DNA from: Candidatus Oxydemutator sp.
GTDB taxonomy: Bacteria > Pseudomonadota > Gammaproteobacteria > Poriferisulfidales > Oxydemutatoraceae
Length of the DNA: 64,000 nt
Reading direction: 5' to 3'
NCBI GenBank assembly: GCA_965203445.1
Contig: OZ241883.1
Coordinates: forward strand, 2,272,001-2,336,000
Of this stretch, positions 6,281 to 61,610 are shown in pieces (the first letter of the stretch is position 1; the number at the start of each line of letters is the position of its first letter). The notes under the pieces were generated by a model that did no database searches, was not told the DNA's origin, and saw only the letters and a program-made list of their open reading frames with translations. Made by a program: the position numbers and the translations under genes.

Positions 6281-6398
6281 GCCTGGCGGTGTCCTACTCT
6301 CACACGGGGAGGCCCCGCACTACCATCGGCGATGTGCCGTTTCACTTCCGAGTTCGGAATGGGATCGGGTGGTACCAGCACTCTATGGCCGCCAGGCA
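6281..6398 (-). rRNA. rrf: 5S ribosomal RNA (stand-alone)
   Basis: Minus strand TGCCTGGCGGCCATAG...CCCGATCCCATTCCGAACTCGGAAGTGAAAC...GATGGTAGTG...GAGAGTAGGACACCGCCAGGC. Confidence 0.97.
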
Positions 6399-6544
6399 AA
6401 CCGGTTGTCGCGCGCTTCAATGCGTGGTGGCAATCAGATAATCCAGAAAACCCAGTATCGAGAAAAAGATGAGCGGCGAGATCATGTTCTCCGGAGGCGC
6501 TTTCGTCATCGCAATTCTCGTTTCTGGTTGATCGGTAACCGCCG

Positions 6545-6572
6545 ATTATAGCGCATCAAAAAAACATCGCAA
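6545..6572 (-). promoter_or_regulatory. Sigma70 promoter for the 5S rRNA
   Basis: TTGCGA-N16-TATAAT followed by a GC-rich discriminator (CGGCGG). Confidence 0.65.
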
Positions 6573-6589
6573 AACGGGATGTATGGGCT

Positions 6590-6811
6590 TGTCAAACCGA
6601 AGCACAAATGTCCTATTGTTTCCAAAGCGCAGATGTCCTGTTGTTGGCAGGGCTTAGCGCTTTCATGGTCTCCCCGCCAGCGTCTCCACGGGTGATCCGG
6701 CGCCGGTCTGTGGCCTGAACCGCAGCGCCGCCTGGTTGTCGCCTTATCCACTACAGATGGCAATTGTTTTGCGTCCACTGGCGCCGCCGGTGCCTCGCCC
6801 AGGCGATGCAC
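6590..6811 (-). mobile_element. ISNCY/IS1202-like transposon right-end remnant
   Basis: Residual ORF with a GHRPAPDHPWRR C-terminal motif; end ...TTTGACA preceded by two copies of AGGACATyTGyGCTT. Confidence 0.6.
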
Positions 6812-7172
6812 CTAGTAGGCAGTTCGCGCGTGTTTCAGTTGTTGAGGGATTGGCTATACTGGTGATGCTACGGGAAAGCGATCGCCCTTCGATCCGAGGA
6901 GAAGTTTCAGTTGTTGAGGGACTGGCTATACTGGTGATGCTGCTATCTGCGGGCGCGCGGGCACGGGCAGATCGGGTTTCAGTTGTTGAGGGATTGGCTA
7001 TACTGGTGATGCGCCGCCGCGCGCGAGACCGACGCCGAGGATACCGCATGTTTCAGTTGTTGAGGGATTGGCTATACTGGTGATGCCGAGGGGTACGCGG
7101 GGTAGGCGCTTGCGGACGGGCAGGGTTGTGATACACTTCGCCCGTCACTCTTTGGGATTGGTTATACTGGTT

Positions 7173-7274
7173 TGAGGGCGGTGACGCCATCTTCTGCGGG
7201 TGGCGGAACCGATGGCAGAAGATGTGCAAGCGTCAGGAGACCGTCCTCCTCCTGCAATTTAGTAGCCGCCCTCA
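7173..7274. ncRNA. Putative multibranch structured RNA inside the array insert
   Basis: Stems TGAGGGCGG/CCGCCCTCA, CATCTTCTGC/GCAGAAGATG, CAGGAG/CTCCTG; TATACT box at 7163-7168 just upstream on +. Confidence 0.45.
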
Positions 7275-7604
7275 TTCCTTTTGTTTCGCCCTTTTTCTTT
7301 GGTACAGCAGAATCCCGACGCGGCGCCTGTCAATGTATTCCCACTTCGCGCGCAGCACGGTCACAAACACCGAGCCGTCCTCGTGCTCCTGCGCGACCCC
7401 GAGAATGGGACGCGCCTTGTCCTCGCCTCGGAACACCTTGATATAGTGCCTGCGGTATTCGCCTGGCCACGAATACCAGGCCAGCCACTCCTCGTCGGCA
7501 TCCTTCAGCGTCGGTAAATAGAAGTTTGCGTATCGCTCGCGCCAAGTGCGCCTCCCCTTTTTGCCGACGACGACGTGGGTTGCGCCCCCCCAGCCGAATC
7601 TCAC
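7272..7604 (-). CDS. PBECR2-like nuclease domain (MuF C-terminal toxin-like), probably an N-truncated fragment inside the array
   Basis: RERY..YLPTLKDADEEW...YRRHYIKVF...YIDRRRVGILLYQR pattern; the frame stays open up to the repeat at 7636. Confidence 0.6.
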   Translation of the reverse strand: MRFGWGGATHVVVGKKGRRTWRERYANFYLPTLKDADEEWLAWYSWPGEYRRHYIKVFRGEDKARPILGVAQEHEDGSVFVTVLRAKWEYIDRRRVGILLYQRKRAKQKE

Positions 7605-10600
7605 GCCCCCGGCGGGCTCTCCCCGCGTTTTGATGGTTTCAGTTGTTGAGGGATTGGCTATACTGGTGATGCGGTCGGCGCCGGTGGCGAACCACCAGAA
7701 CTTGCGGTTTCAGTTGTTGAGGGATTGGCTATACTGGTGATGCCGAAATCCAGGGGCGCGTGCTCGCGCCCGACGACGGGTTTCAGTTGTTGAGGGATTG
7801 GCTATACTGGTGATGCAGAGGTTTCCTTTGCCGAGTTGGACAAGCGTTGGGGTTTCAGTTGTTGAGGGATTGGCTATACTGGTGATGCGCTTGTGCCAAC
7901 GCCTGCGCACGCGGCGCATTGATGTTTCAGTTGTTGAGGGATTGGCTATACTGGTGATGCCTTTTGCTCGACGCCCTGCAACATTTCCACGTTCGTTTCA
8001 GTTGTTGAGGGATTGGCTATACTGGTGATGCCGCAGCGCGCCGAAGTTCCGCAGCACCCACTCCACGTTTCAGTTGTTGAGGGATTGGCTATACTGGTGA
8101 TGCCCGGCGCCGGCAGCGCGAGCGGCGGCAGGTCAATCGTTTCAGTTGTTGAGGGATTGGCTATACTGGTGATGCCGACGACGCGCTCTACGACGCGGAG
8201 CTTCATGAGTTTCAGTTGTTGAGGGATTGGCTATACTGGTGATGCGATCGCGCAGATGCCGAAGGCCGACATCTATGGCGTTTCAGTTGTTGAGGGATTG
8301 GCTATACTGGTGATGCCGCAAGGTCAAGACTTCCGCGGCGCATAGCCGACGCCAGGCGCATAGCCGACACGGCTATACTGGTGATGCCGCAAGGTCAAGA
8401 CTTCCGCCCCAGGTTTGTGGATGTTTCAGTTGTTGAGGGATTGGCTATACTGGTGATGCTGTTTGGTGTTGTCGAGCGCGGTGGCAGAACTGGTGTTTCA
8501 GTTGTTGAGGGATTGGCTATACTGGTGATGCATACCCGCCCGGCCAATACCACTATATCCCCGGGTAGTTTCAGTTGTTGAGGGATTGGCTATACTGGTG
8601 ATGCGTCAAGTATGGGCGTTCGACGGCCTCCAGCCTATGTTTCAGTTGTTGAGGGATTGGCTATACTGGTGATGCACGGCGCAGGGGAAAACGCGCCTGA
8701 GGTTATGCCGTGTTTCAGTTGTTGAGGGATTGGCTATACTGGTGATGCGGCGCGCTGACTTTGTTCTTGGTCACCTTCGCGGTTTCAGTTGTTGAGGGAT
8801 TGGCTATACTGGTGATGCTCTCACAAACAGTCTGGCCGCGTTTCACATCCCAGTTTCAGTTGTTGAGGGATTGGCTATACTGGTGATGCCGCGTTGGCCG
8901 ACACCGCCGCGCGTGTGCTCGGCAGTTTCAGTTGTTGAGGGATTGGCTATACTGGTGATGCTGATGAAGGCGATTGTGGACATGAGGCCGGCGCCGTTTC
9001 AGTTGTTGAGGGATTGGCTATACTGGTGATGGCCGCGACTGGCGATCAATGCGTGGCGGGGAAGCCGCGTTTCAGTTGTTGAGGGATTGGCTATACTGGT
9101 GATGCTGGGTGTTCGCCAAATCGAAATACGCGGTCAACGCAGTTTCAGTTGTTGAGGGATTGGCTATACTGGTGATGCGAAGTGATCCGCAAGTTCCCCG
9201 CGCACATGACAAGTTTCAGTTGTTGAGGGATTGGCTATACTGGTGATGCCTCCAGCATGGCTTTCTGTTTCGAGTCCAGCCCGCGTTTCAGTTGTTGAGG
9301 GATTGGCTATACTGGTGATGCAGCTCTACACCTCCGTCGTGGCAAATAATGTCCGGAGTTTCAGTTGTTGAGGGATTGGCTATACTGGTGATGCTCCCGT
9401 GCGCGTTCCGCTGGTCGAAAAGAGGCGGCGTTTCAGTTGTTGAGGGATTGGCTATACTGGTGATGCTGTCGTACACGAGCGACGACGGCGACAAGTTTTA
9501 TCGTTTCAGTTGTTGAGGGATTGGCTATACTGGTGATGCATCCCGACTCGTCCGGCAGTCTTTGGGCTCAGGGGTTTCAGTTGTTGAGGGATTGGCTATA
9601 CTGGTGATGCTGCGCTCGGATGGCTGGCGGCGTCGAAGGTCTTGACGTTTCAGTTGTTGAGGGATTGGCTATACTGGTGATGCGCGGGAGGTGATGACGG
9701 CCCTTTCCGAAAACGTGTAGTTTCAGTTGTTGAGGGATTGGCTATACTGGTGATGCATAAAGCAAGGTGTTGATGAGACTATTAGTTTCGGGTTTCAGTT
9801 GTTGAGGGATTGGCTATACTGGTGATGCAATCTCGAAGTGGACATCGCCGACCTGCTGAACGAGCAGTTTCAGTTGTTGAGGGATTGGCTATACTGGTGA
9901 TGCCGTAGCCGCACAAAGATTAAACAGAAAATGGATGTTTCAGTTGTTGAGGGATTGGCTATACTGGTGATGCCGGCGCCGACCCCGCCCCCGGATCCCG
10001 TCCGCGACCGTTTCAGTTGTTGAGGGATTGGCTATACTGGTGATGCGCTGGACCTTCTGCACGAGGCGGCGGTCGGCGCAGGTTTCAGTTGTTGAGGGAT
10101 TGGCTATACTGGTGATGCGTGATGCGCGCTCTTGACCTCTTCTGCGGCGTCGGGTTTCAGTTGTTGAGGGATTGGCTATACTGGTGATGCTTAGAAGTGA
10201 AACAATTATGGTTCGAGGACGCCAGTTTCAGTTGTTGAGGGATTGGCTATACTGGTGATGCGGACGGCACGGCAATCAGAATAAAAGACGTACCGAGTTT
10301 CAGTTGTTGAGGGATTGGCTATACTGGTGATGCCGGTGATAGAGAGAATCAAGAGGGAGGAAAAGTGAGTTTCAGTTGTTGAGGGATTGGCTATACTGGT
10401 GATGCGGCACGTTTGCAGGCACGACCTTGTCGGCGGCACGTTTCAGTTGTTGAGGGATTGGCTATACTGGTGATGCGCGGCTACGCCGTTCGGCCAGGGC
10501 ACCAGGGTCTGTTTCAGTTGTTGAGGGATTGGCTATACTGGTGATGCCGGGGCCGCCGCCGACGTTCCCTTTGTCTCAACAAGTTTCAGTTGTTGAGGGA

Positions 10601-10691
10601 TTGGCTATACTGGTGATGCAGAAAGGCACGCAGAGTTCAGAGATGCTTATCGCAGTTTCAGTTGTTGAGGGATTGGCTATACTGGTGATGC

Positions 10692-10784
10692 CCCATCCCA
10701 AGCCCTTGTTTTACAAGGGCTTGGGATATTTCACAGGGGGCAGAATTTTCGCAAGTAGAGCTATTGCACCAAAGCACGGCGAAT
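10692..10784. promoter_or_regulatory. CRISPR leader with a long palindrome
   Basis: Lower GC; ATCCCAAGCCCTTGT-TTT-ACAAGGGCTTGGGAT next to the last repeat. Confidence 0.65.
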
Positions 10785-10812
10785 TTGCGAAAAGTAACGA
10801 TTGTGCTACGAT
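10785..10812 (+). promoter_or_regulatory. Promoter of tracrRNA-1
   Basis: TTGCGA-N16-TACGAT with an extended -10 TG. Confidence 0.65.
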
Positions 10813-10819
10813 CATGACT

Positions 10820-10946
10820 CCAGTATAGCCAATTCTTGATACTCTGTAATCATAAAAAAGTATCTTGAACGGACCTCTGCATTTTTGCACGTCTGCCTTC
10901 ACTCGATGAAGGATTAAGAAACCGCCTCCGGGCGGTTTCTTTTTTT
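10820..10946 (+). ncRNA. tracrRNA-1, type II-B (Francisella-like)
   Basis: Anti-repeat CCAGTATAGCCAAT, then CTCTGTAATCAT-AAAAGTAT-TTGAACGGACCTCTG-CACGTCTG resembling the FnCas9 tracrRNA as recalled; ends in a terminator. Confidence 0.85.
10916..10946 (+). terminator. Intrinsic terminator (possibly bidirectional, also serving cas4)
   Basis: AAGAAACCGCC-TCCG-GGCGGTTTCTT plus T-run. Confidence 0.85.
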
Positions 10947-10953
10947 CCGACTC

Positions 10954-11547
10954 TCACAATCGGTCATTACAAAAATTCACGTATTCGCAGGTGCAGCACT
11001 GGGCGACCGTCGCACTCGATTCCGGCTTCAGTCCACGCCGCAGCATCCGCCTGATTTTATCCGCCACCTCTGCAACCAGCCGACGCTTGTCCGCGTCAAT
11101 GTCAATCGTATGCAGAACCTTCCCTTTCCCGACCAAGAATCCGGCCGTGCTCGGCTTGGAAAAATGCTCCTCTAACAGCAAGGCATAAGCCGCCAGTTGC
11201 AGTTGGTCGCCGCGCTTCCCGCGGTTTGCGGAAAGCTTGAACTCGACGGCGTACACCGCCTCGTCGGTTTCCACCGCCATGTCCGCGATGCCATGCAGTC
11301 CCAACGCATCGCTGCGCACCGCCAGATTGTGATGGGTTTTCCCGCTCCGCAAATTGAATCTGGAGAGATTGCGACGCTGCCATAATTTTTCCTCTGCCCG
11401 GTGGAAGTGCTCTCCCTGCCCGACCCAGACGGGGCGATGAAAAGCAACATCGGTCAACTCCATGTAATACACGACCCGCGGGCAGTAGCACCACTGCCGG
11501 ATTAAATTTACCGGAATGCTATATGGCAAGGGTTTCCTCCCAATCAT
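10954..11547 (-). CDS. cas4: CRISPR-associated exonuclease Cas4
   Basis: QWCYCPR, GIAD, VEFK, QLAAYA, CCTCEYVNFC Fe-S cysteines; start may be as far up as 11574. Confidence 0.93.
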   Translation of the reverse strand: MIGRKPLPYSIPVNLIRQWCYCPRVVYYMELTDVAFHRPVWVGQGEHFHRAEEKLWQRRNLSRFNLRSGKTHHNLAVRSDALGLHGIADMAVETDEAVYAVEFKLSANRGKRGDQLQLAAYALLLEEHFSKPSTAGFLVGKGKVLHTIDIDADKRRLVAEVADKIRRMLRRGLKPESSATVAQCCTCEYVNFCNDRL

Positions 11548-11821
11548 GGAAATCGCTCTTTTCGTGGCCGACAAAATAACTCCGCCCCCGCCCGTTGAAG
11601 TTGGTATGCGTAATAAATGCCTTGTCCGCCTGCCCCAGGCTATCGTGCAGGTAGCGTTTAATCGCCTCCAGCTCCGCCAGCGTCAGATACCCCCAAAACA
11701 CCGACTTCTGCACGGCTCTGAGCCCGTGCTTCCCCAACTCCATAAAAACGCGGGCGCGCGTTTTATTGTCTTCCACGTCGTAGCTGACCAGATACTCCTG
11801 CCGCAATGGATAATTCTTCAT
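11519..11821 (-). CDS. cas2: CRISPR-associated Cas2
   Basis: YLVSYDVEDNKTR, VQKSVFWG. Confidence 0.95.
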   Translation of the reverse strand: MKNYPLRQEYLVSYDVEDNKTRARVFMELGKHGLRAVQKSVFWGYLTLAELEAIKRYLHDSLGQADKAFITHTNFNGRGRSYFVGHEKSDFHDWEETLAI

Positions 11822-11830
11822 GCCGCCAAA

Positions 11831-12787
11831 TCACCACTTGAACAAATAAGGCCGATAGTTTTGCTCGCCGTAGAAATGACCGCACAAACGATAAACTTGG
11901 CGCTGGATAATATGTTCCAATTTGTGCTTCTTTCTGCGATACGTGTATTTCTTGGCGCACGTTTTCTGTATTTCCCCTATCAACGCCTTCTTCAGGGCGA
12001 CATCCAGAACCGTTCGCCCCTCGCTGCGGGAGCGCAACTTGACTACGGCGCGATCAACCACCCACGCGCGGTATTCTTCCATGACGTCGAGCACCAGCGC
12101 CATTTTCCCCGGCCGCCGGACGTGCATGACGCCGAGATAAGGCTCCAGCCCGGCGTTGATAATCGCGCTCAGGATATAACTGCTCAACACCGCGTAACCG
12201 AGATTGAGCATGGCGTTGTTGATTTCCCCGCTTCCCCGCCCCTCGCGCCTCGTGAACGAAGCCGAAAACAGCCGCGCTTGCCGCAAACCCTGAAAATAGG
12301 CATTGGCGCCGGCACCCTCGAAACCGAGCAAGGTCTCGAGGTCTCTCGCGTGTGGCGCCTTGTCCGCGTGTGCCCGCAATTCATCGGCGGCGGAGCGCAG
12401 AAACGGATGCCTGTGATATTTGTCGAGATGGTTCAGCACGGCGCGCTGATTTTTCAGTTTTGCGACGACGATCCTCCGCGCCAGCGGCATCGTGTCGCGC
12501 TGGCAAAAAGCCATCTGCGCCTGGCGCACCGCCACCACACCGTGTTGCGACTGTCCCAAAATCGCCGAGTGTGCGACACCGCGAAAATCCAAAAAAAATA
12601 ACTTGATGCCGCGGCTGCTGAAAGCCTCGATCAGATCGCTCGATATGCTGACGCCGCGTTTGGCGATGGAGACGGTGCACAGGCGATTGAGCGGATAGTG
12701 CCTGCTTTCTCCATCCTGCCTGACCACCAAGCGATGGCTGTTCAGCCCCAAAAAAGCCCCATAGTCGCCGATGACAAGGTGTTTCAT
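11831..12787 (-). CDS. cas1: CRISPR-associated endonuclease Cas1
   Basis: LLGFEGAGANAYF, NAMLNLGY, GLEPYLGVMH, LDVMEEYR; 318 aa. Confidence 0.96.
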   Translation of the reverse strand: MKHLVIGDYGAFLGLNSHRLVVRQDGESRHYPLNRLCTVSIAKRGVSISSDLIEAFSSRGIKLFFLDFRGVAHSAILGQSQHGVVAVRQAQMAFCQRDTMPLARRIVVAKLKNQRAVLNHLDKYHRHPFLRSAADELRAHADKAPHARDLETLLGFEGAGANAYFQGLRQARLFSASFTRREGRGSGEINNAMLNLGYAVLSSYILSAIINAGLEPYLGVMHVRRPGKMALVLDVMEEYRAWVVDRAVVKLRSRSEGRTVLDVALKKALIGEIQKTCAKKYTYRRKKHKLEHIIQRQVYRLCGHFYGEQNYRPYLFKW

Positions 12788-12880
12788 GGTGTGATCGTGC
12801 CGGCCAGCCGCGGGCTTGGCCGCGTACTTGACCTGGTCTATAGACCGGTATTATAGTCTATATAACACAGGGAGCAGGCC

Positions 12881-13123
12881 ATGACCAAAGAAAACATCGG
12901 ATCTTACGAGGCGAAAACGAAGCTGCCCGAACTGTTGAGGCGGGTGCAGGCGGGCGAGGCCTTTACGATAACCAGACGTGGCAAGCCCATAGCGGACCTG
13001 CTGCCCAGCCAGGCCGGGGCGCGACAAAAGACGGCGGCCGCCATTGACAACATCGCTGCCATGGGCAAACGGACGGTCTCCGAGCGTCGCCTGAAAGAAT
13101 ATAGAGACAAAGGCCGCGAGTGA
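12881..13123 (+). CDS. Phd/YefM family antitoxin
   Basis: IGSYEAKTKLPELLRRVQAGE.FTITRRGKPIADL. Confidence 0.9.
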   Translation: MTKENIGSYEAKTKLPELLRRVQAGEAFTITRRGKPIADLLPSQAGARQKTAAAIDNIAAMGKRTVSERRLKEYRDKGRE

Positions 13124-13545
13124 CGACCTTCGTGCTGGATAATTCAGTGGCAATGCGTTGGCTGCTCGCAACTCCCAGCCCTTCGGGGCAGAAGTATGCC
13201 GGGAAGGTCCTGCAAAGCATGAAAGACGCGGACGCGCTCGTGCCCGCGCTCTGGCACCTCGAAGCGGCCAATGTCCTGCTCCACGCCGAAAGAGACGGCC
13301 AGATAACGACCGGCCAGGCACAAGCGTTTGTCTCACAACTGAAAAATCTGCCCATTACGATTGATTCACCGACCCAGACAAATTCGGTCGACCGAATTAT
13401 GGCGCTGGCTCGGTCATACAACCTCAGCAGTTACGACGCCGCCTATCTGGAGATTGCCACCCGCAATTCGGTACGGCTCGCCACCCTGGACAGATCGCTG
13501 GCAAAAGCAGCGAGGAAAGCGGGAGTAGGTATCTATCTGAAATAA
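13120..13545 (+). CDS. vapC: VapC/PIN-domain toxin
   Basis: FVLDNSVAMRW, WHLEAANVL, SSYDAAYLE, LATLD; coupled to the antitoxin. Confidence 0.9.
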   Translation: MTTFVLDNSVAMRWLLATPSPSGQKYAGKVLQSMKDADALVPALWHLEAANVLLHAERDGQITTGQAQAFVSQLKNLPITIDSPTQTNSVDRIMALARSYNLSSYDAAYLEIATRNSVRLATLDRSLAKAARKAGVGIYLK

Positions 13546-13561
13546 GAAAGCACCAGTGTGC

Positions 13562-13828
13562 TCAAGTAGTCTTCGCCTTCAGCGGGAACCGCGCAGGATT
13601 TCGGATGATTTCTCTGCTCAGATCAACGTCTATCATCGGCCAGTAATAATGATCCGCAGATAATTGCTCCACTTTAAGGATCGCCTCAACGGGCTGCCCC
13701 TTGAACCAGGGAAAATCCTCGTAGGACAGAAATAACTCCTCATCATGTGCAAGCAGCCATATACCGTGGGTAGATATATGGGTAACTTCAACTTCTGAAG
13801 TAGTCTTTCCAGGCATTGATGAGTTCAT
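13562..13828 (-). CDS. DUF2442 domain protein
   Basis: EVTHISTHGIWL, FLSYEDFPWF, YYWPMIDVDLS, PARFPL. Confidence 0.8.
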   Translation of the reverse strand: MNSSMPGKTTSEVEVTHISTHGIWLLAHDEELFLSYEDFPWFKGQPVEAILKVEQLSADHYYWPMIDVDLSREIIRNPARFPLKAKTT

Positions 13829-16800
13829 TGTGATGGTTCTCTATAGATTTCCAATTCCTTATAACCTATCTCAGTTTCTTCCATCGTTTCATCATCCCTA
13901 AGTGTTGCTCGGGGACCCAGTTTGGTGATAGCCCACGGCCCACTTTTCCCATCAATACGAACCCTATCACCCCGTTTGAATATTTTGAGTATTTTATAAT
14001 TCACTGGAAGTTCTTTATCTATTTCATTTCTTTCATAAACTGGCTGAGACTTATCCTTCCAATAAAACTTATTCGTAATACGAACAGCATCTATTTTATC
14101 TTTTCCATCTTTATTATATTGAATAACCATAACTTTATCCCAAGAAACCGTCCGTCTAAAGTGATGCATGCCTTTTGTATTTTTATCTTTTCTTCGCCAC
14201 ATCTGTTGAACTCCCATGCCCCCTCGGACACCAGGACCCACCCTTACGCAACGAACTGACCGTGTATTCTTGGGGTGTAAAATATGCTCCTGGGGCAGCC
14301 TCAGAAAATAAGAATGCGTAATTGTTCTCTTATCACCGCTTCCATTTGTCATTTCTTTTTTTCTGTCATCCGGCATATCATCGATTTTTTCCCATGCTTT
14401 TTCCATTGCCATCCTGATAGGCTCGGACTGTATATTCCCGATATTCTTTTTTTGAATCTTCTCCAACGGTTTTCTTTGTGTAATCATGCCGTCCAAACAA
14501 CGCAAAGGTTCAGTATCCGTTTTGCTGCATTCGATCTTTCCTTCATTTCTCTTGTCTTCAACATACCAACCCGAAGATTTATCGGGAGCCAACAAATTCC
14601 CTCTGCCGTCTTCTCTTAGATTGATAAAAGCAGGGGCATTTTCCTTCCTTGCCTGCTTACGAACATCACTATTCAAGCGTTTGATCGCTTCCCAATCTAC
14701 ATTTGCTGCCAAGACCACAGCATCAAGGGCATGGTGGAACTCTCTGATGGGATCATCTTTCGCTGGCTCAACAATCACCTTAAACCTTTTCACGGCAATT
14801 TTGGTCTTTATCATAACTTTGATATTCGAGATCTCCCCCGTACTTTTGTCTACAACTTCCACATCGCACCATGGTACATATTTACCATTACCTCTTTTCC
14901 TGTAACACTTCTTCAGTGTCCCAACCAATTTATTACCCTTGACAGATAGCCAATCATTACCTGCTTCCTCATCATTCTTACGATATTTAAGCTTTACAGA
15001 AGCATTAGCACCTTCCAACAATTTACTTAGTTTTTTATCCTTTGAGAAAACATCTTCCAATAACAACTCTAATTCTTGATCAAGCTGTCCTTTTGTCTCA
15101 TAGAGAGTTTCATCTTTCTTTTTTCCACTCGTTTTGCCTTCCTTTACTACTTCAAGGACGAAGTTTTTATTGTTACAGTTCTCTAACCAAAACTGGTTTG
15201 TCCCTACTGCATTATCATCCGGAGTCCCGACAAGCATCACTTTCCCATTATTTTTGTCCGTTCGAATTTCCAGCCAGTCAGTTACCCCTTCATCATAGTC
15301 TTTACAGATAGAAACCTCCCCATCAAATAAATACTCATCCAACTTCAGCTTTGAAAGTTCATATTTGAATTCTTCACCTGCCTTTGTTTTGTATGGATTC
15401 CTAAATCGTATAGCCCGCTTCTGCCGATCCATAAACGGAAACCAGAACCGACGAAGATAAATTGAATCACCTGAACGTATTTTGTGAATCACCTCTGATG
15501 GCAAGTTAAATTCATCCATAAAAGCCTGTTTCAAGAGTTTCGCCCCGAACATGGTGTGCTGTGGGGCAGCAAGCATATCCTCAGGCAGTCTCCTGTCTGC
15601 CTCCAAACGGGATTGAATGAATTTGTGCTTCTCAGGATTATTATTCTCAATCAAAGAAAGGACATTCTTATCCAGAGGCTCCCTCCGGTTGTGCTTATCA
15701 ATATTGCAAATTGAATGACCGATTACTTTATTCCGGGCAATATTTCCCCCACCTTTTGATTTAGGGAACAGATGATCAATATGAGCGTCACTATGCAAAA
15801 ACTCACCACAAAATATGCAACGGCCACCTTGATCCGCCCTAAGCGTGGCCATATCCCCACCCGCCGACTGTTGATACTGTTTCGGCTTGAGCTTCTTCTT
15901 CAGCTTCTTACCTTCACTCTGAGCCAGAGCACTGATATCAAAACGCGCTGTCTCTATACCTACATGTTCAATAGGTATCGGCGAATTTCTGAGGTCTCGT
16001 ACCTCCTGCTCCTTCAACATCTTGCGCACAACAACAGTGATTTTTTCAACTTTCTGCCGTATTGAGGGTGGCGCGTCATCTTTCAATGTTAAAACACGCT
16101 CTTCATGAAGCCTCGCCCATGAATTGCCCTTGGTTTCATCGCGCTCCAAAAGGTTCAGTTTTTGTTCCAGGTGCTTAATACAAAAACCTGCTCTGCCGGG
16201 CTGTTCCCCACAAATAATATCCCTGAGAATATCTTTCTTGCCTCTCGCCTCGTTCTCTGCGGGGAGAACATAGCGATTTCCCCTACTGTTAGTAAAAAAT
16301 TGATTAATAGTTTCCTGATTTTTATTTTTGATAACTCCGTCTAGTTCTTTCACAAACTCCAAACTATTCATCAACTTCTGTATTTCACTCTCATCCAACT
16401 TGTCTTTATTCCCATTGGCACGCCTCACATTCATTTGACGCAACTCAATTTCAAACTGAAGTCTGCGAACGTCTTTCCTGCGCTTTTTAGGGAGATTAAG
16501 TCCGCAACGTGTTCCATCATCGTCAGTAGCTGCCGGGCATTTGCCCATGCTATTGCGGTTGTTGAATCTTTTCTTGCGATATTCACGATTGACTACCTTT
16601 GTTGCTGCCTTAATCCATCGCTTTTTTATTTCTGTAGGGGTAGTACCTGCTCTATGAGCGATTTCACTGGCCTTATTATGAACATCCGCCATTGATTGTT
16701 GCCAATCCTGTTTTATTTTGGCCATAGACAAGATCTGTCTGTTCTGATTGACTTTGCTTTTCTTCAAACCCTGGAAGGTTTCATCCAGGCAAATTTGAAA

Positions 16801-17790
16801 GCGATCCTGCTCCAAGCCACAGGCGACTTTCATCAGGTTTTCCAACCCGCTTAGCATTTCCTCACGATGGCGATTACGATGTGGACGATAAACTTTGCCT
16901 TCCTCAAAAAGCTTCTCACCTGTTTGTAGGCCAAGCATAGTCATAATGCGAGTAACAATTTCTTCTTCCTGAGGTATGGTACTTCCAGCCCCATAGACCA
17001 AACCAAGGCGTTCTTTGATCCAGCTCTTTATATCCTCTGGCACAGCATCTTGAAGTTTTATTTCCAGTGCCTCATAAACCACTTCCTGCCTGGCAAGCTC
17101 CTCCATGACTGAAGAATCTTTTTCGGCTTTTTTTCTGAGATCGTGAATCTCTTTAGCTTTCTCATAAAGCTCACCCAGGCAGCTCCGTTCCTCTTTTATT
17201 TTTATAAAGGAAACAGTTTTGTCAGAAAATTTTTGAGACTCACTATGCCTTGAACGCCTGTTGAATTCTTGTCTTGCGTTGTCTTGGGCTTGTTTGTATT
17301 CCTCGTCTGATTCATTCTTGTATTTCCTACGCCCTTTCTCGTTAAATTCCGCGGGCGCATTAAATTCCTGAAGAAGAATCCTGTCAACTTCTTTAACTAT
17401 TAGAGGGCATTTAGGAGATTTACCATCATCAGTTTTGACAACGAGCAATTCAAGCAAGCTCGCATAGTCCCATCCACGATAATGGGCTAGCGCATAAAGG
17501 CGGTTTCCAAGAGAAGCCTTATCTCTCTCAGTCTGTTTCTCCCCCGGTTTCGCATTTCTTGGCTCCAACCCCATGCCTTTAAGAAGCGCATAGAAGTCGC
17601 GTAGCCGCCTCGCCTTGGAAAGTTTCCGCCTGCGTTGTCCCCTGTTGACGCGACGTTTTTGGAGAGTATCCGATAGCGTAGTGCGATGTTTGAGAACTTT
17701 ATAATCCAGGACTTCATTACTTGAACTCAACAAGCCAACGCCTGTATATGCGTAACCGAAGTCAATCCCTAATCTGAAGGACTTATTCAT
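13825..17790 (-). CDS. cas9: Type II CRISPR effector Cas9 (Cas9d/II-D-like core with large insertions), ~1321 aa
   Basis: RuvC-I LGIDFG..YTG, Arg-rich bridge helix, RuvC-II GIETARFD, HNH GRCIFCG..HIDHLFP..CN..K, RuvC-III HHALDA; ATG 17790 with AGGTGG RBS. Confidence 0.9.
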   Translation of the reverse strand: MNKSFRLGIDFGYAYTGVGLLSSSNEVLDYKVLKHRTTLSDTLQKRRVNRGQRRRKLSKARRLRDFYALLKGMGLEPRNAKPGEKQTERDKASLGNRLYALAHYRGWDYASLLELLVVKTDDGKSPKCPLIVKEVDRILLQEFNAPAEFNEKGRRKYKNESDEEYKQAQDNARQEFNRRSRHSESQKFSDKTVSFIKIKEERSCLGELYEKAKEIHDLRKKAEKDSSVMEELARQEVVYEALEIKLQDAVPEDIKSWIKERLGLVYGAGSTIPQEEEIVTRIMTMLGLQTGEKLFEEGKVYRPHRNRHREEMLSGLENLMKVACGLEQDRFQICLDETFQGLKKSKVNQNRQILSMAKIKQDWQQSMADVHNKASEIAHRAGTTPTEIKKRWIKAATKVVNREYRKKRFNNRNSMGKCPAATDDDGTRCGLNLPKKRRKDVRRLQFEIELRQMNVRRANGNKDKLDESEIQKLMNSLEFVKELDGVIKNKNQETINQFFTNSRGNRYVLPAENEARGKKDILRDIICGEQPGRAGFCIKHLEQKLNLLERDETKGNSWARLHEERVLTLKDDAPPSIRQKVEKITVVVRKMLKEQEVRDLRNSPIPIEHVGIETARFDISALAQSEGKKLKKKLKPKQYQQSAGGDMATLRADQGGRCIFCGEFLHSDAHIDHLFPKSKGGGNIARNKVIGHSICNIDKHNRREPLDKNVLSLIENNNPEKHKFIQSRLEADRRLPEDMLAAPQHTMFGAKLLKQAFMDEFNLPSEVIHKIRSGDSIYLRRFWFPFMDRQKRAIRFRNPYKTKAGEEFKYELSKLKLDEYLFDGEVSICKDYDEGVTDWLEIRTDKNNGKVMLVGTPDDNAVGTNQFWLENCNNKNFVLEVVKEGKTSGKKKDETLYETKGQLDQELELLLEDVFSKDKKLSKLLEGANASVKLKYRKNDEEAGNDWLSVKGNKLVGTLKKCYRKRGNGKYVPWCDVEVVDKSTGEISNIKVMIKTKIAVKRFKVIVEPAKDDPIREFHHALDAVVLAANVDWEAIKRLNSDVRKQARKENAPAFINLREDGRGNLLAPDKSSGWYVEDKRNEGKIECSKTDTEPLRCLDGMITQRKPLEKIQKKNIGNIQSEPIRMAMEKAWEKIDDMPDDRKKEMTNGSGDKRTITHSYFLRLPQEHILHPKNTRSVRCVRVGPGVRGGMGVQQMWRRKDKNTKGMHHFRRTVSWDKVMVIQYNKDGKDKIDAVRITNKFYWKDKSQPVYERNEIDKELPVNYKILKIFKRGDRVRIDGKSGPWAITKLGPRATLRDDETMEETEIGYKELEIYREPSQ

Positions 17791-17804
17791 AACCCACCTG
17801 AATG

Positions 17805-17939
17805 TAAAACAATACCCTGCATAAAGCAGGGTATTGTAGATTTTGCTCGCCCTCAAGCGGTGACTTACTGAAAACAGAGCATCGCCTGCAAAAAACGATG
17901 GTGCCAGCAAGCACCTCGGACTTTTTTCAGTTGTTGAGG
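17805..17939 (-). ncRNA. tracrRNA-2 candidate upstream of cas9
   Basis: 15-nt perfect anti-repeat CCTCAACAACTGAAA (17925-17939), several hairpins, terminator ACAATACCCTGC/GCAGGGTATTGT followed by TTT. Confidence 0.75.
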
Positions 17940-17943
17940 CCTG

Positions 17944-17971
17944 ATTGTAACGACGAAGAAAAAACTGTCAA
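17944..17971 (-). promoter_or_regulatory. Promoter of tracrRNA-2/cas9
   Basis: TTGACA-N16-TACAAT directly upstream of the anti-repeat. Confidence 0.8.
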
Positions 17972-17987
17972 GCCCTGATGTGTTGTT

Positions 17988-18638
17988 CTACATTGGCGTC
18001 GCAGGGGTTGCGAAGTCGTCGTCGTAGAAATAGTGTCCCTTCAGCCGTTTGACGTTGAAAATGAGTATTTCGCTATGGAACAGTATGCCGTCGAACACGT
18101 TCTTCGGGAGGCTGATTATCGAGCATATCTCGGGATAAGTGCCGTCTACAAACTTGATCCAGCGCCTCGATTGTTGCGTCTGGTTCAGGCGCAATCCGTA
18201 AGGGGTGAACAGCACAATCGGGATGCTTTTGCCGAACAGTTCTATCGCTTTTTGCAGCCACACTTCCGGCAGCAATGGCCTGCCACCATAATTTTCTACC
18301 AGATGCGCTTTCGTCTTCGGGTCAATGTTGAACGGGGGGTTCATTATCACGAGGCCAGGCTCCTTCAGCTCTCCCTTCTTTACCTTCAGATAATTCCTGA
18401 CCCGCGTCCTCGGAAAACCCTGCTTTTCTATATCAATGCCGACAACGTCAAACCCGTTCTCCTCGAAAGGCCGCAGCAACGAACCCTCGCCCACGCACGG
18501 GTCGAGCACCGGCTTCGACTTGTCAATGCGCTTGCCGACCAGTTCATACAGGAACCGGCTGACACCTTCCGGCGTCTGTATCGTGGATTTCTTTTGTCGG
18601 TTGTAAAAATTATTGCGATCAACTCTGTACATCGTCAT
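17988..18638 (-). CDS. Solitary N6-adenine DNA methyltransferase
   Basis: VLDPCVGEG (motif I) and MNPPF (motif IV); GGAGGAG RBS. Confidence 0.8.
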   Translation of the reverse strand: MTMYRVDRNNFYNRQKKSTIQTPEGVSRFLYELVGKRIDKSKPVLDPCVGEGSLLRPFEENGFDVVGIDIEKQGFPRTRVRNYLKVKKGELKEPGLVIMNPPFNIDPKTKAHLVENYGGRPLLPEVWLQKAIELFGKSIPIVLFTPYGLRLNQTQQSRRWIKFVDGTYPEICSIISLPKNVFDGILFHSEILIFNVKRLKGHYFYDDDFATPATPM

Positions 18639-19632
18639 CAACTCCTCCGATTGTATTCCTTCGCCCGCTCCCCCACAAACTCCGAATCGCCGCGATTCCG
18701 TGGCCGCCGTGATGTCGGCATTGTGCCAAATCTTCCGGGCCAAGGCCGCCCAATCCGTACACCGGCATCGGCGCGTCTTGCACCAGCGTCGCAAAAGCAT
18801 CCCATCCCAATCCGCGCGCGCCGGGGTGTCCCGGCGTCTCCCGCACCGGTCCCAGCACCGCGAAGTCGGCGTCGAGCGAGGCCGCCGTTTTCAGTTCGTC
18901 CGCGTTGTGGCACGAGGCGCCAAACCAACGGCCCGCGGCCACCGGGCGACGGCGGCAGCGTCGCAATGCGGCGGCGCTCAGGTGCACGCCGGCGGCACCG
19001 GCGCCCGGGTGCGCAAGCAATGCGGGGTCGCGGTCGTGCAGCAGGACGCGCGCATGAAAAGCAGCGGCATCAGTCGCCATGCGACGAGCCAGTTCCTCGT
19101 AATCGTCGTCGTCCAGGCGATTGTCCCTGAACACGGCGAGGCGCACGCCGCGTTCCAGCGCGCGGCGGAAGCATTGCAGAAAGCGCGCGGGGTGTTCGAC
19201 GTTCGGGGTGATCAGGTAGCGGTCGGGAAGCCTCAGCGCGTTGATCATGGCGCGGCTTGCGGGCGGAAAGTCCGGCGCGCGCAGGGCCTCGATTTTCGTC
19301 CAGCGCAAGTCGTTGTCGCCGGCCAGGCGCGGGGCGCCGTCGAAGTCGCGCACCGTGAACACGTGAAAACGCAGGCGGCGCTCCCGGTAGCGCCACGGAA
19401 ATTGAATCAGGGGTTCGGAATTGCGCGCGACGACGCCGGTTTCTTCCTTCAGTTCGCGGGCAAGCGCCCGCTCGGGGGATTCGCCCGGCTCGATCTTGCC
19501 GCCGGGAAACTCGCGCAGGCCGCCCTGATGAACTTCGGGACGGCGCACAGAGGTCAGAACGGAGTCGGCGCGTCGCACCAGGCCGATTGCGATGGAGATC
19601 ACGGGGAATGGATCGGAGTCGGGCAAGAACAA
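18619..19632 (-). CDS. mutT: MutT Nudix hydrolase fused to a thiamine-phosphate-synthase-like domain
   Basis: EFPGGKIEPGE..ALARELKEETG; ASCHNADEL, PVYGLGG; start may be GTG 19602. Confidence 0.85.
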   Translation of the reverse strand: MFLPDSDPFPVISIAIGLVRRADSVLTSVRRPEVHQGGLREFPGGKIEPGESPERALARELKEETGVVARNSEPLIQFPWRYRERRLRFHVFTVRDFDGAPRLAGDNDLRWTKIEALRAPDFPPASRAMINALRLPDRYLITPNVEHPARFLQCFRRALERGVRLAVFRDNRLDDDDYEELARRMATDAAAFHARVLLHDRDPALLAHPGAGAAGVHLSAAALRRCRRRPVAAGRWFGASCHNADELKTAASLDADFAVLGPVRETPGHPGARGLGWDAFATLVQDAPMPVYGLGGLGPEDLAQCRHHGGHGIAAIRSLWGSGRRNTIGGVDDDVQS

Positions 19633-48363: not shown

Positions 48364-51300
48364 TCATCGTCCACTTGACCGGCAAATCATCCCACGAGTG
48401 AGACCGGATGGACGCCTTAATTGCGTCAACACACGATCGAAATCAGATGAGACTAGCAATTCGTCAAGGCTGACGTTCGCGCTTGGCATATAAAACTCCG
48501 TGCCCCTAAATCTGAGAATCCTGAACGAAGCCGGATTATTTGTGGCCTGAAGCCCCAAACTGATAGCACGCCTAAGAGCCTCGTCTGCGAATTCAGCATC
48601 CGCCGATACTATCGTGCCGTCAGCATTCACGTCGCCGGTTATCATGAACAAACGGTCATTGTTACGGAACATCGGGCAGCTCCCATTATACAAATCCGCA
48701 GAGGCTCCCACCTCTCGGTAGTCTACGCAATAGTTCGCACCTGAATCACCGCAATCCGTGGACAATGGCCGCGCCGACAATATCGGCAGGTGGTTGCGAT
48801 GCTGCAACAGCAGATACACGTCCTTGTTCGGCTCTATCTCGGCGTCAAAGCGCACCCCTTGCCGAGCCAACACATCCGTCGTCGTCGTCGCATTCTCGTT
48901 CACGCCTGCTATGCTGCCGTCGGACAAAAGCAAGCCCGCCTTCACCCCGCCCGCGGGCACGCTGTCCGGATCCGCGGCGCTCGGCGCGGAACCCGTGTCC
49001 ACCACCCGCAACTCCAACAACATCCAGTCCACCACATTCGACGGCATGCCGTTGGCGTTGGCGGCGCCCTCTATACGCGGCACCGTCGTCGTCGCCGCGT
49101 GGTTCCAGGGCCTCACGTTATACGGTTGTACACGTGGCAGCGCTCGATTCAAAAACGTGCCCATGTCGCCAGTCGCGACACGATACGCTCCCTCCAGATA
49201 CACGCCCGCGGCCACCACCAGACCTCGCTCGCTGCGGATGCGGGCTTCGGCGGACGACGTTGTTCCTATTTCCGCGGGATGATCGCTGCCGCAGTTCGGG
49301 CAGTTCGTCAGGCGCAAACGAAATCGCTCGTTGCTTTCCTTCGCTACCTCGTCGGCCACAACCGACACACCCACTTCCGCGCTACCGTCCGTGCGCAACG
49401 TTATGCTCCCGGTGACCGGCAGCGCATTCAAACTCACATAGTTGGTGCCGTTGCGGTCTATCACGGTGGCTTGCCCCAGATCTCCGGCCGTCAGATCTTC
49501 GGACACGGCCGCAAGCTCATACTCCACCGTAACGGCCCGATCAGCGCCGCTGCTCAACGACACCGTGAACGTTGCGGTAGTCCCTTCCGCCACCACCGCA
49601 GGCGCCACCGCCACCGTCACCTGCTCCAGTTCGTTGGCCGCTATCGTCGTCCGCGCAACGGTGCCCGGCACCTCCAGCGTCACGTCGTCAGGCGCCCCGG
49701 TAAGCCGCGCGTTGCTCATGGTCACCTCGAAGGCCTCGTCCAGCTCGGCGACACCGTCAACGGCCACCGTCAGGGAAAACGACGCGCTGCTCCCACCCGG
49801 TGCGATAACCACGCTGCCTCTGCTGGTGCCGCCAAAATCGGCGACGCCAATTCCAGTGCCGCCCACCGACCAATCCCAACTCGCACCAATGCCCGCGGGC
49901 AAGACCCCCGGCAGACGCACCACGTAGGTCGCCGCCTCGCCTTCCGACACCGTCTTGCTGCCGCCAAGCGTCGGCGTCAGCACCACCGCGGGCTGCGCCT
50001 GCTGTTGCGACGTGCGACGCGCCTGCCTGGTATCGGTAGAACCACCAAACACCAGCACCGGGTAATCAAACACACTACCAAAATCCCACGGAGCGTCGTC
50101 GTTGTAGTCGCCGTCGCCCCCCTGATCCACGTCGTTCACGTTCAACCTGTCCCAGCCCTCGTAGATGGTGCCCGCCGCCATCGTCGGGACGCGCAACTGA
50201 GCGGAAGTCCTGGGCGCGTTGTCCATAGTTGGCTTATTGCTGCCGCAACACGCGGATTGGCCGCTGCGCCCTTCGTCAAAATAGCTTGTCTGTATCGTAC
50301 CGGCATTATAGTCCCCCACCAGACCACCGGACGGAAACCCTTGCAGGCCGTGCTGCCTGCCCAGCCTCGAGACCGCGTAGCTGGCACTGACTATGCCGCC
50401 ATTCGCAACGCCGCCTATCAAACCCCCCACGCTTTCCCCCGGCGGCCACTGATGCACCCGCACGTCCGCATAACTGGCAATCACGACACCCCCGTCCAAT
50501 CTGCCTACCAGACCGCCCAAGGCCCAACCACCGCGCACTTGCCTGCTGTCGCCCACCACGTAACACGCCGCCACCTTGCCCGCGTTGTATCCCACCAACG
50601 CGCCCGCCCCTACGCTGCTGCCGGCCATGTCCATATGCACGTTGTTCAAGCCCACGTTGCGGATCCTGCCTGTGACGCCCACGGCACCAAAAAAGCCCAC
50701 GTTATCGAACCGGTCGGCCGCATTGTTTGCGCTGCGGATCGTTATATTGCTGATGACGTGGCCGTTGCCTTCAAAAACGGCCTGGTAACGTCTGTTCGAG
50801 GGAGGAGTACCCCAAGGAGCCTGTGTAAGCCCCCCGCCTATCGGCTTCCAGTTCGGTATGCCGGACAGATCCAGGTCGGCCGATAACTCGTAGCCGGTGC
50901 ACGTGCTGGGACAGGTGCGCCTCTCGTCGAAAAAGGGAAACGCCGCCAAGTATGCATCCCTGTCGCTGACGCCGGCCAGCCCGACACCGTCCAGGTCGTA
51001 GCGTATCGCCTCCAACTGGGTCGTCGTCCTCACGTCTATCAGATTATCGTCGTCGGTGTCGTAGTCTATGCCGTCGCTGAACCCGATGGTGGTGGTTACC
51101 GCGGAATCCGCGACACCCAATACTATCCGCACTCCCGCATCCGCGACACCGCCCGCGCTCACCGAGAACCGCTCCGCGTACTCCGCGTCCCGGTCATCGA
51201 AAACATATACCGAAAACGTTGTCTTGCTGCTGCCCGCCGAGATAGTCGCGGTGCCGGTGGGGAAACCAGCGAGCCGCATTCCGGCGTCGTCGGCAAAATC

Positions 51301-52527: not shown

Positions 52528-52553
52528 ACCCAGACTTCGTTTGTAACGGGATT

Positions 52554-52566
52554 GGGGGGGGGGGGG
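52554..52566. repeat. Poly-G (13) tract
   Basis: Homopolymer just upstream of the paralog 1 start. Confidence 0.9.
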
Positions 52567-52709
52567 TAGTCATTGGTTCAGCGAAGGGTGTAAGCGAACA
52601 AGCATTTTGTCATTTTGGGACAGGTTTTTGTCATCGCTATTTAACAATAATCCGAAAAAACGAAGTTCGCGCCGGCTGCTGCGGGCGCTGGCAGAAGCCT
52701 GCAAGAACT

Positions 52710-56480: not shown

Positions 56481-56498
56481 ACTTCGTTTGTACAGAAA

Positions 56499-56517
56499 GG
56501 GGGGGGGGGGGGGGGGG
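56499..56517. repeat. Poly-G (19) tract
   Basis: Homopolymer at the equivalent position upstream of paralog 2. Confidence 0.9.
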
Positions 56518-56660
56518 TAGTCATTGGTTCAGCGAAGGGTGTAAGCAGAGAAGCATTTTGTCATTCTGGGGCAGGTTTTTGTCATCGCTATTTAATAATA
56601 ATCCGAAAAAACGAAGTTCGCGCCGGCTGCTGCGGGCGCTGGCGGAAGCCTGCAAGAACT

Positions 56661-61055: not shown

Positions 61056-61097
61056 TAGTCCGCGCTCAATAGGAGGGAGAACAATTAGGGGATTATA

Positions 61098-61540
61098 TGA
61101 ACCTATCTCAAAATTGCCTAATCAATATCATCATGGCGGCCAGCTGCACAAAACCAAAAAAGTTATGCGCGTAATACTCCCACCGTGTTAACACTCGTCG
61201 TTGCCATTGTAGCCATGCAAAAGTTCTCTCCACTATCCAGCGTCTTTCACAGCGGCGCAGCCTGCGACCATCCTGTGTCTTGCGTTTCTAACGGCGGTGC
61301 ACTGTTTTGTAATTCGGCTAACATTGCGGCAGCATCTTCCATTGCGCACCCGTGTTGAGGATCCACAGGACGCCTTCGAGAACCTTTCTTGTCGGCACCG
61401 GCTTGCGACCGGCCCGACCCGGCGGGATGTTTTCTTCTGGGAAGTGCTTGCGTATGCGTTCCCATTGCTCGTCGCTCAATCGTACCATGCAATGGATCAT
61501 ACACGATAATCAGCAGATATTCGATTTTGAGATAGGTTCA
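61098..61540 (-). mobile_element. Internally deleted IS5-family element (transposase pseudogene)
   Basis: Perfect 17-bp TIR TGAACCTATCTCAAAAT; N-terminal LSDEQWERI..VLWILNTGAQW joined to C-terminal RWIVERTFAWL with in-frame stops. Confidence 0.88.
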
Positions 61541-61610
61541 GGTTTCATTTGCGTTGGCAGTTACGGCGACGCTTTATTTTCTTTCAGGTGATGCGATGCC
61601 CGCAGAAACT

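Follow-up and report, generated by a model that had tools for sequence, protein, structure and literature searches.

An oversized interval was found in a CRISPR array carried by a 64,000-nucleotide (nt) stretch of the genome of Candidatus Oxydemutator sp. (contig OZ241883.1). This stretch, analysed at its full length, is hereafter called the window, and all positions are given in its numbering. The array (6832-10691) comprises 46 copies of a 37-nt repeat, GTTTCAGTTGTTGAGGGATTGGCTATACTGGTGATGC, and 45 intervals; its sense strand is the plus strand, as follows from the position of the trans-activating CRISPR RNA (tracrRNA). Forty-four copies of the repeat are perfect, and the copies at 6904 and 8996 contain one mismatch each. 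The length of the intervals is 33-38 nt in 43 cases out of 45, and the two outliers measure 106 nt (8317-8422) and 549 nt (7087-7635). The 549-nt interval is well outside the range of an ordinary spacer and is the subject of the present analysis. A repeat search placed perfect plus-strand repeats on both sides of it, at 7050-7086 (the fourth repeat counted from the left end of the array) and at 7636-7672, so the coordinates given in the original prediction, a preliminary annotation made from the sequence, are correct. The interval includes a coding part on the right, derived from a phage gene, and a non-coding part on the left, with a truncated copy of the repeat inside.

The muF/PBECR2 fragment

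On the minus strand, a reading frame is open from 7709 to the stop codon at 7272-7274 and runs across the boundary between the right repeat and the insert; the original prediction had noticed that it is open up to this boundary. Its in-insert portion, 7272-7634, consists of 120 codons and the stop codon. The stop-to-stop translation matches the Pfam model of PBECR2 (PF18810) with an expectation value (E) of 6.8e-12 and a score of 46.1 bits, the gathering score being 27.1, and covers profile positions 38-120 of 120. In a scan of 1.84 billion representative proteins, 142 matches with E<=0.001 were obtained. Besides the contig's own 110-amino acid (aa) prediction, the best of them was a 425-aa protein (P0002), and a word-indexed search of longer proteins returned the same single relative out of 104 candidates. 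The 120 in-insert residues align without gaps to residues 309-425 of this relative, with 74 of 117 positions identical (63%), and the alignment begins at the first in-insert codon, which adjoins the right repeat.

The 425-aa relative contains a Phage_Mu_F domain at residues 39-165 (E 5.2e-28) and a PBECR2 domain at residues 333-420 (E 1.3e-18); the latter match, like that of the insert, starts late, at profile position 35. Residues 1-284 demonstrate about 40% identity to the product of the F (Mup30) gene of Mu-like Pseudomonas phages, and the MuF part of the protein is matched in 409 phage records. In one of these phage records the genes stand in their usual order, terminase, portal, F and the next head gene. 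These matches, which are far above chance level, support the phage origin of the DNA and confirm the presence of a PBECR2-like domain of the kind found at the C-terminus of MuF proteins, as the original prediction had proposed. Judged by its sequence, the fragment represents the 3'-terminal third of a muF gene for phage head morphogenesis, truncated exactly at the repeat. The MuF domain itself (PF04233) was not found in the insert, which is the equivalent of residues 309-425 of the relative only. A tblastn search of the array with four full-length relatives detected no further MuF homology at E<0.2 besides the insert.

The first possible start codon of the fragment is a GTG at 7602-7604 on the minus strand. 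Translation from it would yield a 110-aa protein, and gene callers predicted exactly this protein on the same contig. In the protein collection this open reading frame (ORF) has one member, on one contig. For annotation purposes, this 110-aa PBECR2 prediction most probably represents a piece of a gene and is not to be listed among toxin genes.

PBECR domains have been described as predicted metal-independent RNases fused to MuF, with solo forms in phages, and their active-site histidine has been placed in the N-terminal helix, according to the part of the survey dealing with this family (Iyer et al. 2017, PMC5512222). In the fragment this histidine is present as H20, in a column occupied by H in 82 of 93 aligned sequences and in a modelled helix (residues 15-22); it would be kept even with translation from GTG 7604. 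R32, E33, R61, R105 and G107 are also kept in the alignment of 96 sequences. Substitutions were found at two near-invariant positions, with A46 replacing P (94 of 96) and E49 replacing V or I (92 of 96), and T92, a candidate for the conserved Ser/Thr of strand 4, is located in the modelled strand 88-95 and belongs to a column with N in 51 and T in 40 of the 96 sequences. The AlphaFold2 model (mean predicted local distance difference test score 85.6) includes helices 15-22 and 32-44 and five strands. A fold search against the PDB gave no match with E<=0.001 among at least 500 matches, the best being the CdiA-CT toxin/immunity entry 6cp9 (E 0.3, template modelling score 0.33-0.36). Short solo proteins are common in the family: 29 of the 142 representatives are 130 aa long or shorter, and a length of 110 aa is within the family range. 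By its model score and the conserved histidine the fragment is a PBECR2 member; the RNase activity of the family is a prediction, in its founding paper as well.

The repeat core and the structured region

The 185 nt located to the left of the muF stop codon are not uniform and can be divided into three distinct stretches. The first of them (7087-7153, 67 nt) takes the position of a spacer and matched nothing elsewhere in the window or among the phage records; its similarity to the repeat does not exceed chance (local alignment score 7, reached by 0.46 of shuffled sequences). It is followed on the plus strand by a repeat-derived core (7154-7171), which agrees with repeat positions 15-32 in 17 of its 18 nt and is absent from the original prediction. 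The core is out of register, since position 1 of the repeat would fall at 7140, 53 nt past the left repeat, while the core itself starts after 67 nt. Further repeat similarity beside the core, in 7087-7153 and 7172-7271, was not above chance, with 0.42-0.47 of shuffles reaching the same score. A search of 596 billion bases of genomes for the 18-nt pattern returned 38 hits, all single, in unrelated taxa and outside any array, the chance expectation by our own estimate being about 35. As the pattern is as rare as chance predicts, the match in the insert is derived from the repeat. The predicted duplex of the core with the tracrRNA anti-repeat has an energy of -28.8 kcal/mol vs. -33.3 kcal/mol for the canonical repeat; the baseline for random genomic windows is -15.6 on average (standard deviation 4.4), with -32.7 as the best value.

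The third stretch is a structured non-coding region assigned to the minus strand (7173-7274), in which a 9-bp inverted repeat (7173-7181 / 7266-7274) surrounds a perfect 10-bp hairpin (7188-7197 / 7215-7224). Folding z-scores of -3.08 (minus strand) and -2.04 (plus strand) were calculated for it, and a search of 6400-7700 against Rfam gave no match at E<=1. One arm of the inverted repeat, 7266-7274, overlaps the muF stop codon and the other arm adjoins the core, which ties the core to the phage-derived part of the insert. Taken together, the left repeat, the stretch in the spacer position and the core (7050-7171) have the layout of a mini-array composed of a complete repeat, a spacer-like stretch and a truncated repeat, but the spacer-like stretch measures 53-67 nt and does not have the normal length of a spacer.

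One way to account for this arrangement is that the whole 549 nt are a contiguous piece of a Mu-like phage, in which a short mimic of the host type II-B repeat was located directly after muF. This site would be near the zone, ahead of the protease gene, in which the relatives from Pseudomonas have small accessory genes. On the muF strand the mimic could serve as an anti-repeat decoy pairing with the precursor CRISPR RNA (pre-crRNA), and on the other strand it could be a repeat decoy titrating the tracrRNA. If this were true, the mimic would be an RNA anti-CRISPR directed against a Cas9 system and would also provide homology for phage recombination into the array. We regard this possibility as an outside chance.

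It could also be supposed that there are two arrays here, a small one (6832-7171) with a decayed terminal repeat and the main one (7636-10691), and that the 464 nt between them (7172-7635) are an old prophage remnant or the leader of the main array. A degenerate repeat usually marks the end of an array, as stated in the description of type II systems by Chylinski et al. 2013 (PMC3737331), and the core does lie at the right edge of a block of four repeats. However, the last spacer of the small array would then measure 53-67 nt, with the decayed repeat out of register, and only 18 of the 37 repeat positions are recognisable while the neighbouring repeats are all perfect. Moreover, at most one base separates the muF homology from the first repeat of the main array, and such close contact is not explained if the two are neighbours by chance. 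No promoter-like site was found on the plus strand of 7172-7635, where a leader would be placed. It seems that a division into two arrays is improbable, about as much so as a contiguous phage piece with a repeat mimic.

Expression and origin of the insert

In the original prediction it was suggested that the PBECR2 frame, if expressed from GTG 7604, could act as an array-embedded toxin or an addiction module. The expression signals expected of such a module were not found. A scan for sigma-70-like promoters gave no site on the minus strand of 7605-8000, the only GGAG near the start is located 14 nt upstream of GTG 7604, and no immunity-protein ORF was found downstream of the frame. The frame is also antisense to the transcription of the array and of the CRISPR RNAs (crRNAs). 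We infer that it is silent.

A more elaborate version of the same idea is modelled on CreP, a 103-aa single-domain piece of a phage protein captured by a type I-F locus, where a degenerate mini-CRISPR represses it, as reported in the preprint of Shu et al. (bioRxiv 10.1101/2024.01.05.574328). By analogy, a 110-aa solo PBECR2 protein translated from GTG 7604 would be silenced by Cas9 together with a crRNA-like RNA from the repeat-like element, forming a type II analogue of CrePA that would make the loss or inhibition of CRISPR-Cas costly. Apart from the CrePA precedent of a phage-derived single domain under a degenerate mini-CRISPR, this is favoured by the location of the domain about 100 nt from a repeat-like element predicted to be able to pair with the tracrRNA, and by the retention of H20 and most conserved residues in a confidently modelled structure. 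Against it stand the lack of a promoter-like site upstream of the ORF and its poor ribosome-binding context. In addition, searches for a guide-target match between the repeat-like element and the region upstream of the ORF were negative: the 10-mers of 7087-7139 match nothing near the ORF, and the 9-mers of 7087-7153 gave four matches in 6400-18900 vs. 5.6 expected, none of them near the ORF. The locus includes a single repeat-like element, represented by the core only, two near-invariant positions of the domain are substituted, and no homologous locus was found in other genomes (185,579 species genomes; 596 billion bases). The suggestion of an embedded toxin is not supported by these results, and a functional toxin is the least credible of the explanations considered, to be entertained only as a very slight possibility.

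The right end of the insert deserves separate consideration. The last 35 nt (7601-7635, plus strand) have the position and the length of a normal spacer beside the right repeat, and the MuF homology extends to 7634. They may therefore represent a former muF-targeting spacer, including the part that would end up in the mature crRNA. Transcription of the array on the plus strand would read the muF fragment in antisense and include it in the pre-crRNA. In type II systems, no more than about 20 nt of the spacer, those next to the repeat, are left in the mature crRNA, so the right end of the insert together with the next repeat could still give a crRNA against muF of the source phage. For the same reason a type II array can tolerate a giant spacer. 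A terminator-like hairpin was flagged at 7612-7626 on the plus strand, but the enrichment of such sites was only modest (6 vs. 2.3 +/- 1.4 in shuffles).

The array appears to have a second scar. The 106-nt interval 8317-8422 contains a 34-nt spacer-like stretch, the first 20 nt of which are the same as the start of the next spacer. It is followed by a repeat with its first 20 positions replaced and only the last 17 nt matching, and the interval also holds a duplicated 14-nt motif and a short hairpin. This looks like a template-switch or slippage scar and indicates that the array was rearranged earlier.

The original prediction explained the insert by aberrant acquisition or spacer-mediated recombination. 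The flush junctions make either of them plausible, and neither is proven; at the same time, with the internal core in it the insert is more than a single oversized spacer. Both junctions being flush, with coding homology within one base of the right repeat, the evidence points to array adaptation or recombination rather than to a random insertion, from which flush junctions would not be expected. As regards adaptation, Cas1-Cas2 (with Cas4) would have integrated an over-long, contiguous 549-bp prespacer, in which the end proximal to the protospacer-adjacent motif was processed, the distal trimming failed and the repeat was duplicated in the normal way. In accordance with this, the junctions are exactly at the repeat boundaries, both repeats are perfect, the coding homology extends to the right repeat and a complete adaptation module is present. 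However, the phage itself must then have carried the 18-nt repeat core, and the spacer ruler of this array is tight, as 43 of 45 intervals show. We know of no report of a CRISPR integrase inserting hundreds of bases in vivo, and none was met in the open-access literature searched, although the searches were not aimed solely at this question. One-step acquisition therefore seems unlikely, if less so than the other alternatives.

We consider, with moderate confidence, that the 549 nt remain from phage DNA that recombined into the type II-B array and that they are silent, being neither an oversized spacer acquired in one step nor a working gene. Probably, repeat homology made the left junction, and spacer-protospacer homology made the right one. 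This explanation starts from what is observed, namely the anatomy of the interval, its homology to phages, the repeat core inside it and its flush junctions. An explanation has to cover the two junctions flush with intact repeats, the coding homology that reaches the right repeat and the truncated repeat in the interior, and the following order of events would do so. Immediately beyond the 3' end of muF, the phage may have had either a repeat-like element or a mini-array (complete repeat, spacer and truncated repeat), and homologous recombination between repeats would have linked the phage DNA to the host array at the left end. The host array would already have contained a normal 35-nt spacer derived from muF, now seen as 7601-7635. 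Recombination or single-strand annealing of this spacer with the protospacer of a phage that was entering the cell or already integrated, possibly triggered by Cas9 cleavage, would then have removed the rest of the phage and left the muF sequence flush with the next repeat. With homology from the first in-insert codon, the right junction is defined to within about 1 nt, which agrees with a spacer origin of the terminal 35 nt, and the internal 18-nt core is a reason not to regard the 549 nt simply as one oversized spacer.

Both steps have parallels. Mini-CRISPR arrays and solitary repeat units have been described in viruses (Faure et al. 2019; Medvedeva et al. 2019; both as cited in the review PMC8616872), and it was proposed that viral repeats permit integration into host arrays (PMC8616872; Camara-Wilpert et al. 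2023, PMC10651486, in the parts devoted to such repeats). For spacer-target recombination there is the work of Varble et al. 2019 (according to PMC8616872), in which laboratory events transferred CRISPR loci to transducing particles.

Several results weigh against recombination as the origin of the insert. The comparison with viral sequences that the original prediction called for did not reveal a source phage: neither the 549 nt (blastn) nor the 120 aa (tblastn) had a match in 50,697 phage records, and a tblastn search of 72,556 plasmids was also negative. The search for relatives of the locus in 185,579 species genomes gave 116 pattern matches, none of which was confirmed. It is therefore only an assumption that 7087-7271 and muF were contiguous in a phage. 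The stretch from the left repeat to the core measures 53-67 nt vs. 33-38 nt in the array, which is unlike a canonical mini-array. The other 43 spacers have no significant match to MuF relatives, in a comparison of low power, or to phages. Finally, the histidine together with R32, E33, R61, R105 and G107 is kept and solo forms are common, which means that the decay is slight and that a function of the domain is possible.

The search of the array with its flanks against phages gave a sole match of 31 nt (E 0.03), which lies within the tracrRNA terminator, and no spacer match; the search of the spacers against the window gave one 30-nt match only, with 6 mismatches. The triplet AGG at 7122-7124 was considered as a protospacer-adjacent motif (NGG following a 35-nt first segment) and was given no weight, because the frequency of GG is 0.065 per position, several spacer lengths are allowed and the NGG preference is that of another Cas9.

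It might also be suspected that the insert is an assembly chimera, in which the array was joined to a co-occurring phage or prophage via k-mers common to spacers and protospacers. An insert that starts and stops where spacers would, and a 110-aa ORF confined to one contig of the protein collection, are in agreement with such an artefact. Nevertheless, the contig is 2,378,814 bp long, and the chimera needs two spacers against sites 549 bp apart, in the correct order and orientation, with identities of 35 nt, whereas common assemblers finish with longer k-mers. It would also fail to explain the internal repeat core. An artefact of this kind is thus highly improbable.

The type II-B locus, its surroundings and comparison with known systems

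The CRISPR-Cas system to which the array belongs is located in 6832-17910. The tracrRNA gene (10814-10946, plus strand) includes an anti-repeat (10814-10850), which is in inverse orientation to the repeat with 14 mismatches, stem-loops and an intrinsic terminator (stem 10916-10941 and a T run); its fold z-score is -5.03. The cas operon (10954-17910, minus strand) is convergent with the array and consists of cas9 (13825-17910), cas1 (11831-12787), cas2 (11519-11821) and cas4 (10954-11574). The models of Cas1, Cas2 and Cas4 were matched above their cut-offs, and the 1361-aa protein encoded by cas9 matches HNH and RuvC-type (RRXRR) models. This protein did not reach the cut-off of any NCBIfam Cas9 subtype, the best being Cas9d with 114 bits against a cut-off of 375. 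Since the tracrRNA is on the plus strand, the crRNAs are also read from the plus strand, convergently with the cas genes. Type II-B systems are described as having 37-nt repeats and Cas4, and in F. novicida the direction of array transcription is opposite to that of the cas operon (Chylinski et al. 2013, PMC3737331, in the section on this subtype). The present locus has cas9, cas1, cas2 and cas4, 37-nt repeats, a tracrRNA and an array opposite to the cas operon, and corresponds to this subtype.

Additional features of the locus were recorded. Each repeat, for example 7636-7672, contains on the sense strand GTTTCA and, after 17 nt, TATACT, a weak -35 (3/6) and a good -10 (5/6) element, from which transcription would begin at the next spacer; the pair is below the threshold of the promoter scan. 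Promoters carried by repeats have been described for some type II-C arrays. Right behind the last repeat, on the plus strand of 10692-10735, the arms of a 13-bp inverted repeat enclose a loop of 4 nt and ATATTT comes next, an element which may terminate the pre-crRNA ahead of the tracrRNA gene; it was not called by the terminator scan. The G+C content of cas9 is 42.5% and that of its third codon positions 41.6%, vs. 63.5% for the window and 57% for cas1, which suggests a recent horizontal origin of cas9. The region of about 1 kb between cas9 and cas1 (12788-13824) contains minus-strand ORFs of 88-161 aa with no match to a Pfam or NCBIfam family.

The remaining part of the window is an ordinary chromosome, with lepB-rnc-era-pdxJ, secA, argJ, lpxC and the fts/mur cluster, and neither prophage genes nor a second copy of the insert were found within its 64 kb. 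A lone 5S rRNA gene (6281-6396, minus strand, 102 bits) is located between lepB and the far end of the array, with a sigma-70-like site (6572-6545, minus strand, 10/12) about 150 nt upstream of it; no 23S, 16S or any other Rfam family besides 5S was found in the window at the gathering score. Four consecutive very large ORFs (1387, 1256, 1464 and at least 786 aa) occupy 48364-63971 on the minus strand. Their Pfam matches are absent or limited to weak Calx-beta ones, and short words recur in them every 4.3-5 kb approximately. By these features they look like tandem paralogues of a giant surface protein.

CRISPR arrays are usually read as tidy lists of 30-40-nt memories. The natural array described here contains a stretch of phage coding sequence several hundred bases long, which is flush with repeats at both ends and is accompanied by a truncated repeat in the interior. 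Should the proposed path be true, the insert would be a chromosomal fossil of spacer-protospacer recombination, known mainly from the laboratory, and of recombination at a virus-borne repeat, so far a proposal. Keyword searches by title and abstract in the open-access subset of the literature returned no muF or PBECR fragment inside an array; PBECR2 is mentioned by name in 1 paper of the literature searched.

Among the known systems, the insert shares with CrePA/CreTA (in the form outlined by Shu et al.) a phage-derived single-domain ORF of about 100 aa in a CRISPR-Cas locus beside a degenerate repeat sequence. In CrePA/CreTA the spacer of the mini-CRISPR matches the toxin promoter next to a protospacer-adjacent motif, whereas in the present locus no guide-promoter complementarity and no promoter were found; there is one repeat-like element, the system is type II and not type I, and no conservation of the insert in other loci was found. 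With the MuF-PBECR fusions (PF04233 and PF18810, as presented in PMC5512222) the insert shares 63% identity to the C-terminal 117 residues of such a protein, a PBECR2 match above the model score and the histidine. It differs from them by the loss of the MuF domain and about 308 codons and by its site, which is the CRISPR array of a bacterium instead of the head-gene cluster of a phage. The next head gene follows F directly in Mu-like phages, while in the insert the muF stop codon is followed by at least 185 nt without a convincing ORF.

The virus-borne mini-arrays and solitary repeat units, as far as they are characterised in the cited accounts, resemble the left part of the insert, where a complete repeat, a single spacer-like stretch and a truncated repeat-like sequence lie beside phage DNA. 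Here, however, the stretch is 53-67 nt long instead of 33-38 nt, and it is a host array, not a virus, that carries the arrangement. In the SRUFinder procedure, as defined by Camara-Wilpert et al. 2023 (PMC10651486), a solitary repeat unit is intergenic in a mobile element and shows an identity of 90% or more to a known repeat, of which 90% or more (full) or 50-90% (partial) must be covered. With 94% identity and 18 of 37 positions covered (49%), the truncated repeat of the insert is below the partial limit and the full one. With spacer-protospacer recombination (Varble et al. 2019, in the summary given by PMC8616872) the insert shares that phage DNA is joined to the array exactly at a spacer end. 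In contrast to those laboratory events, the insert is a stable chromosomal remnant in a type II-B system, in which we infer the recombination. Rearranged arrays and recombination between phages and arrays are known, and the insert is a variant of these.

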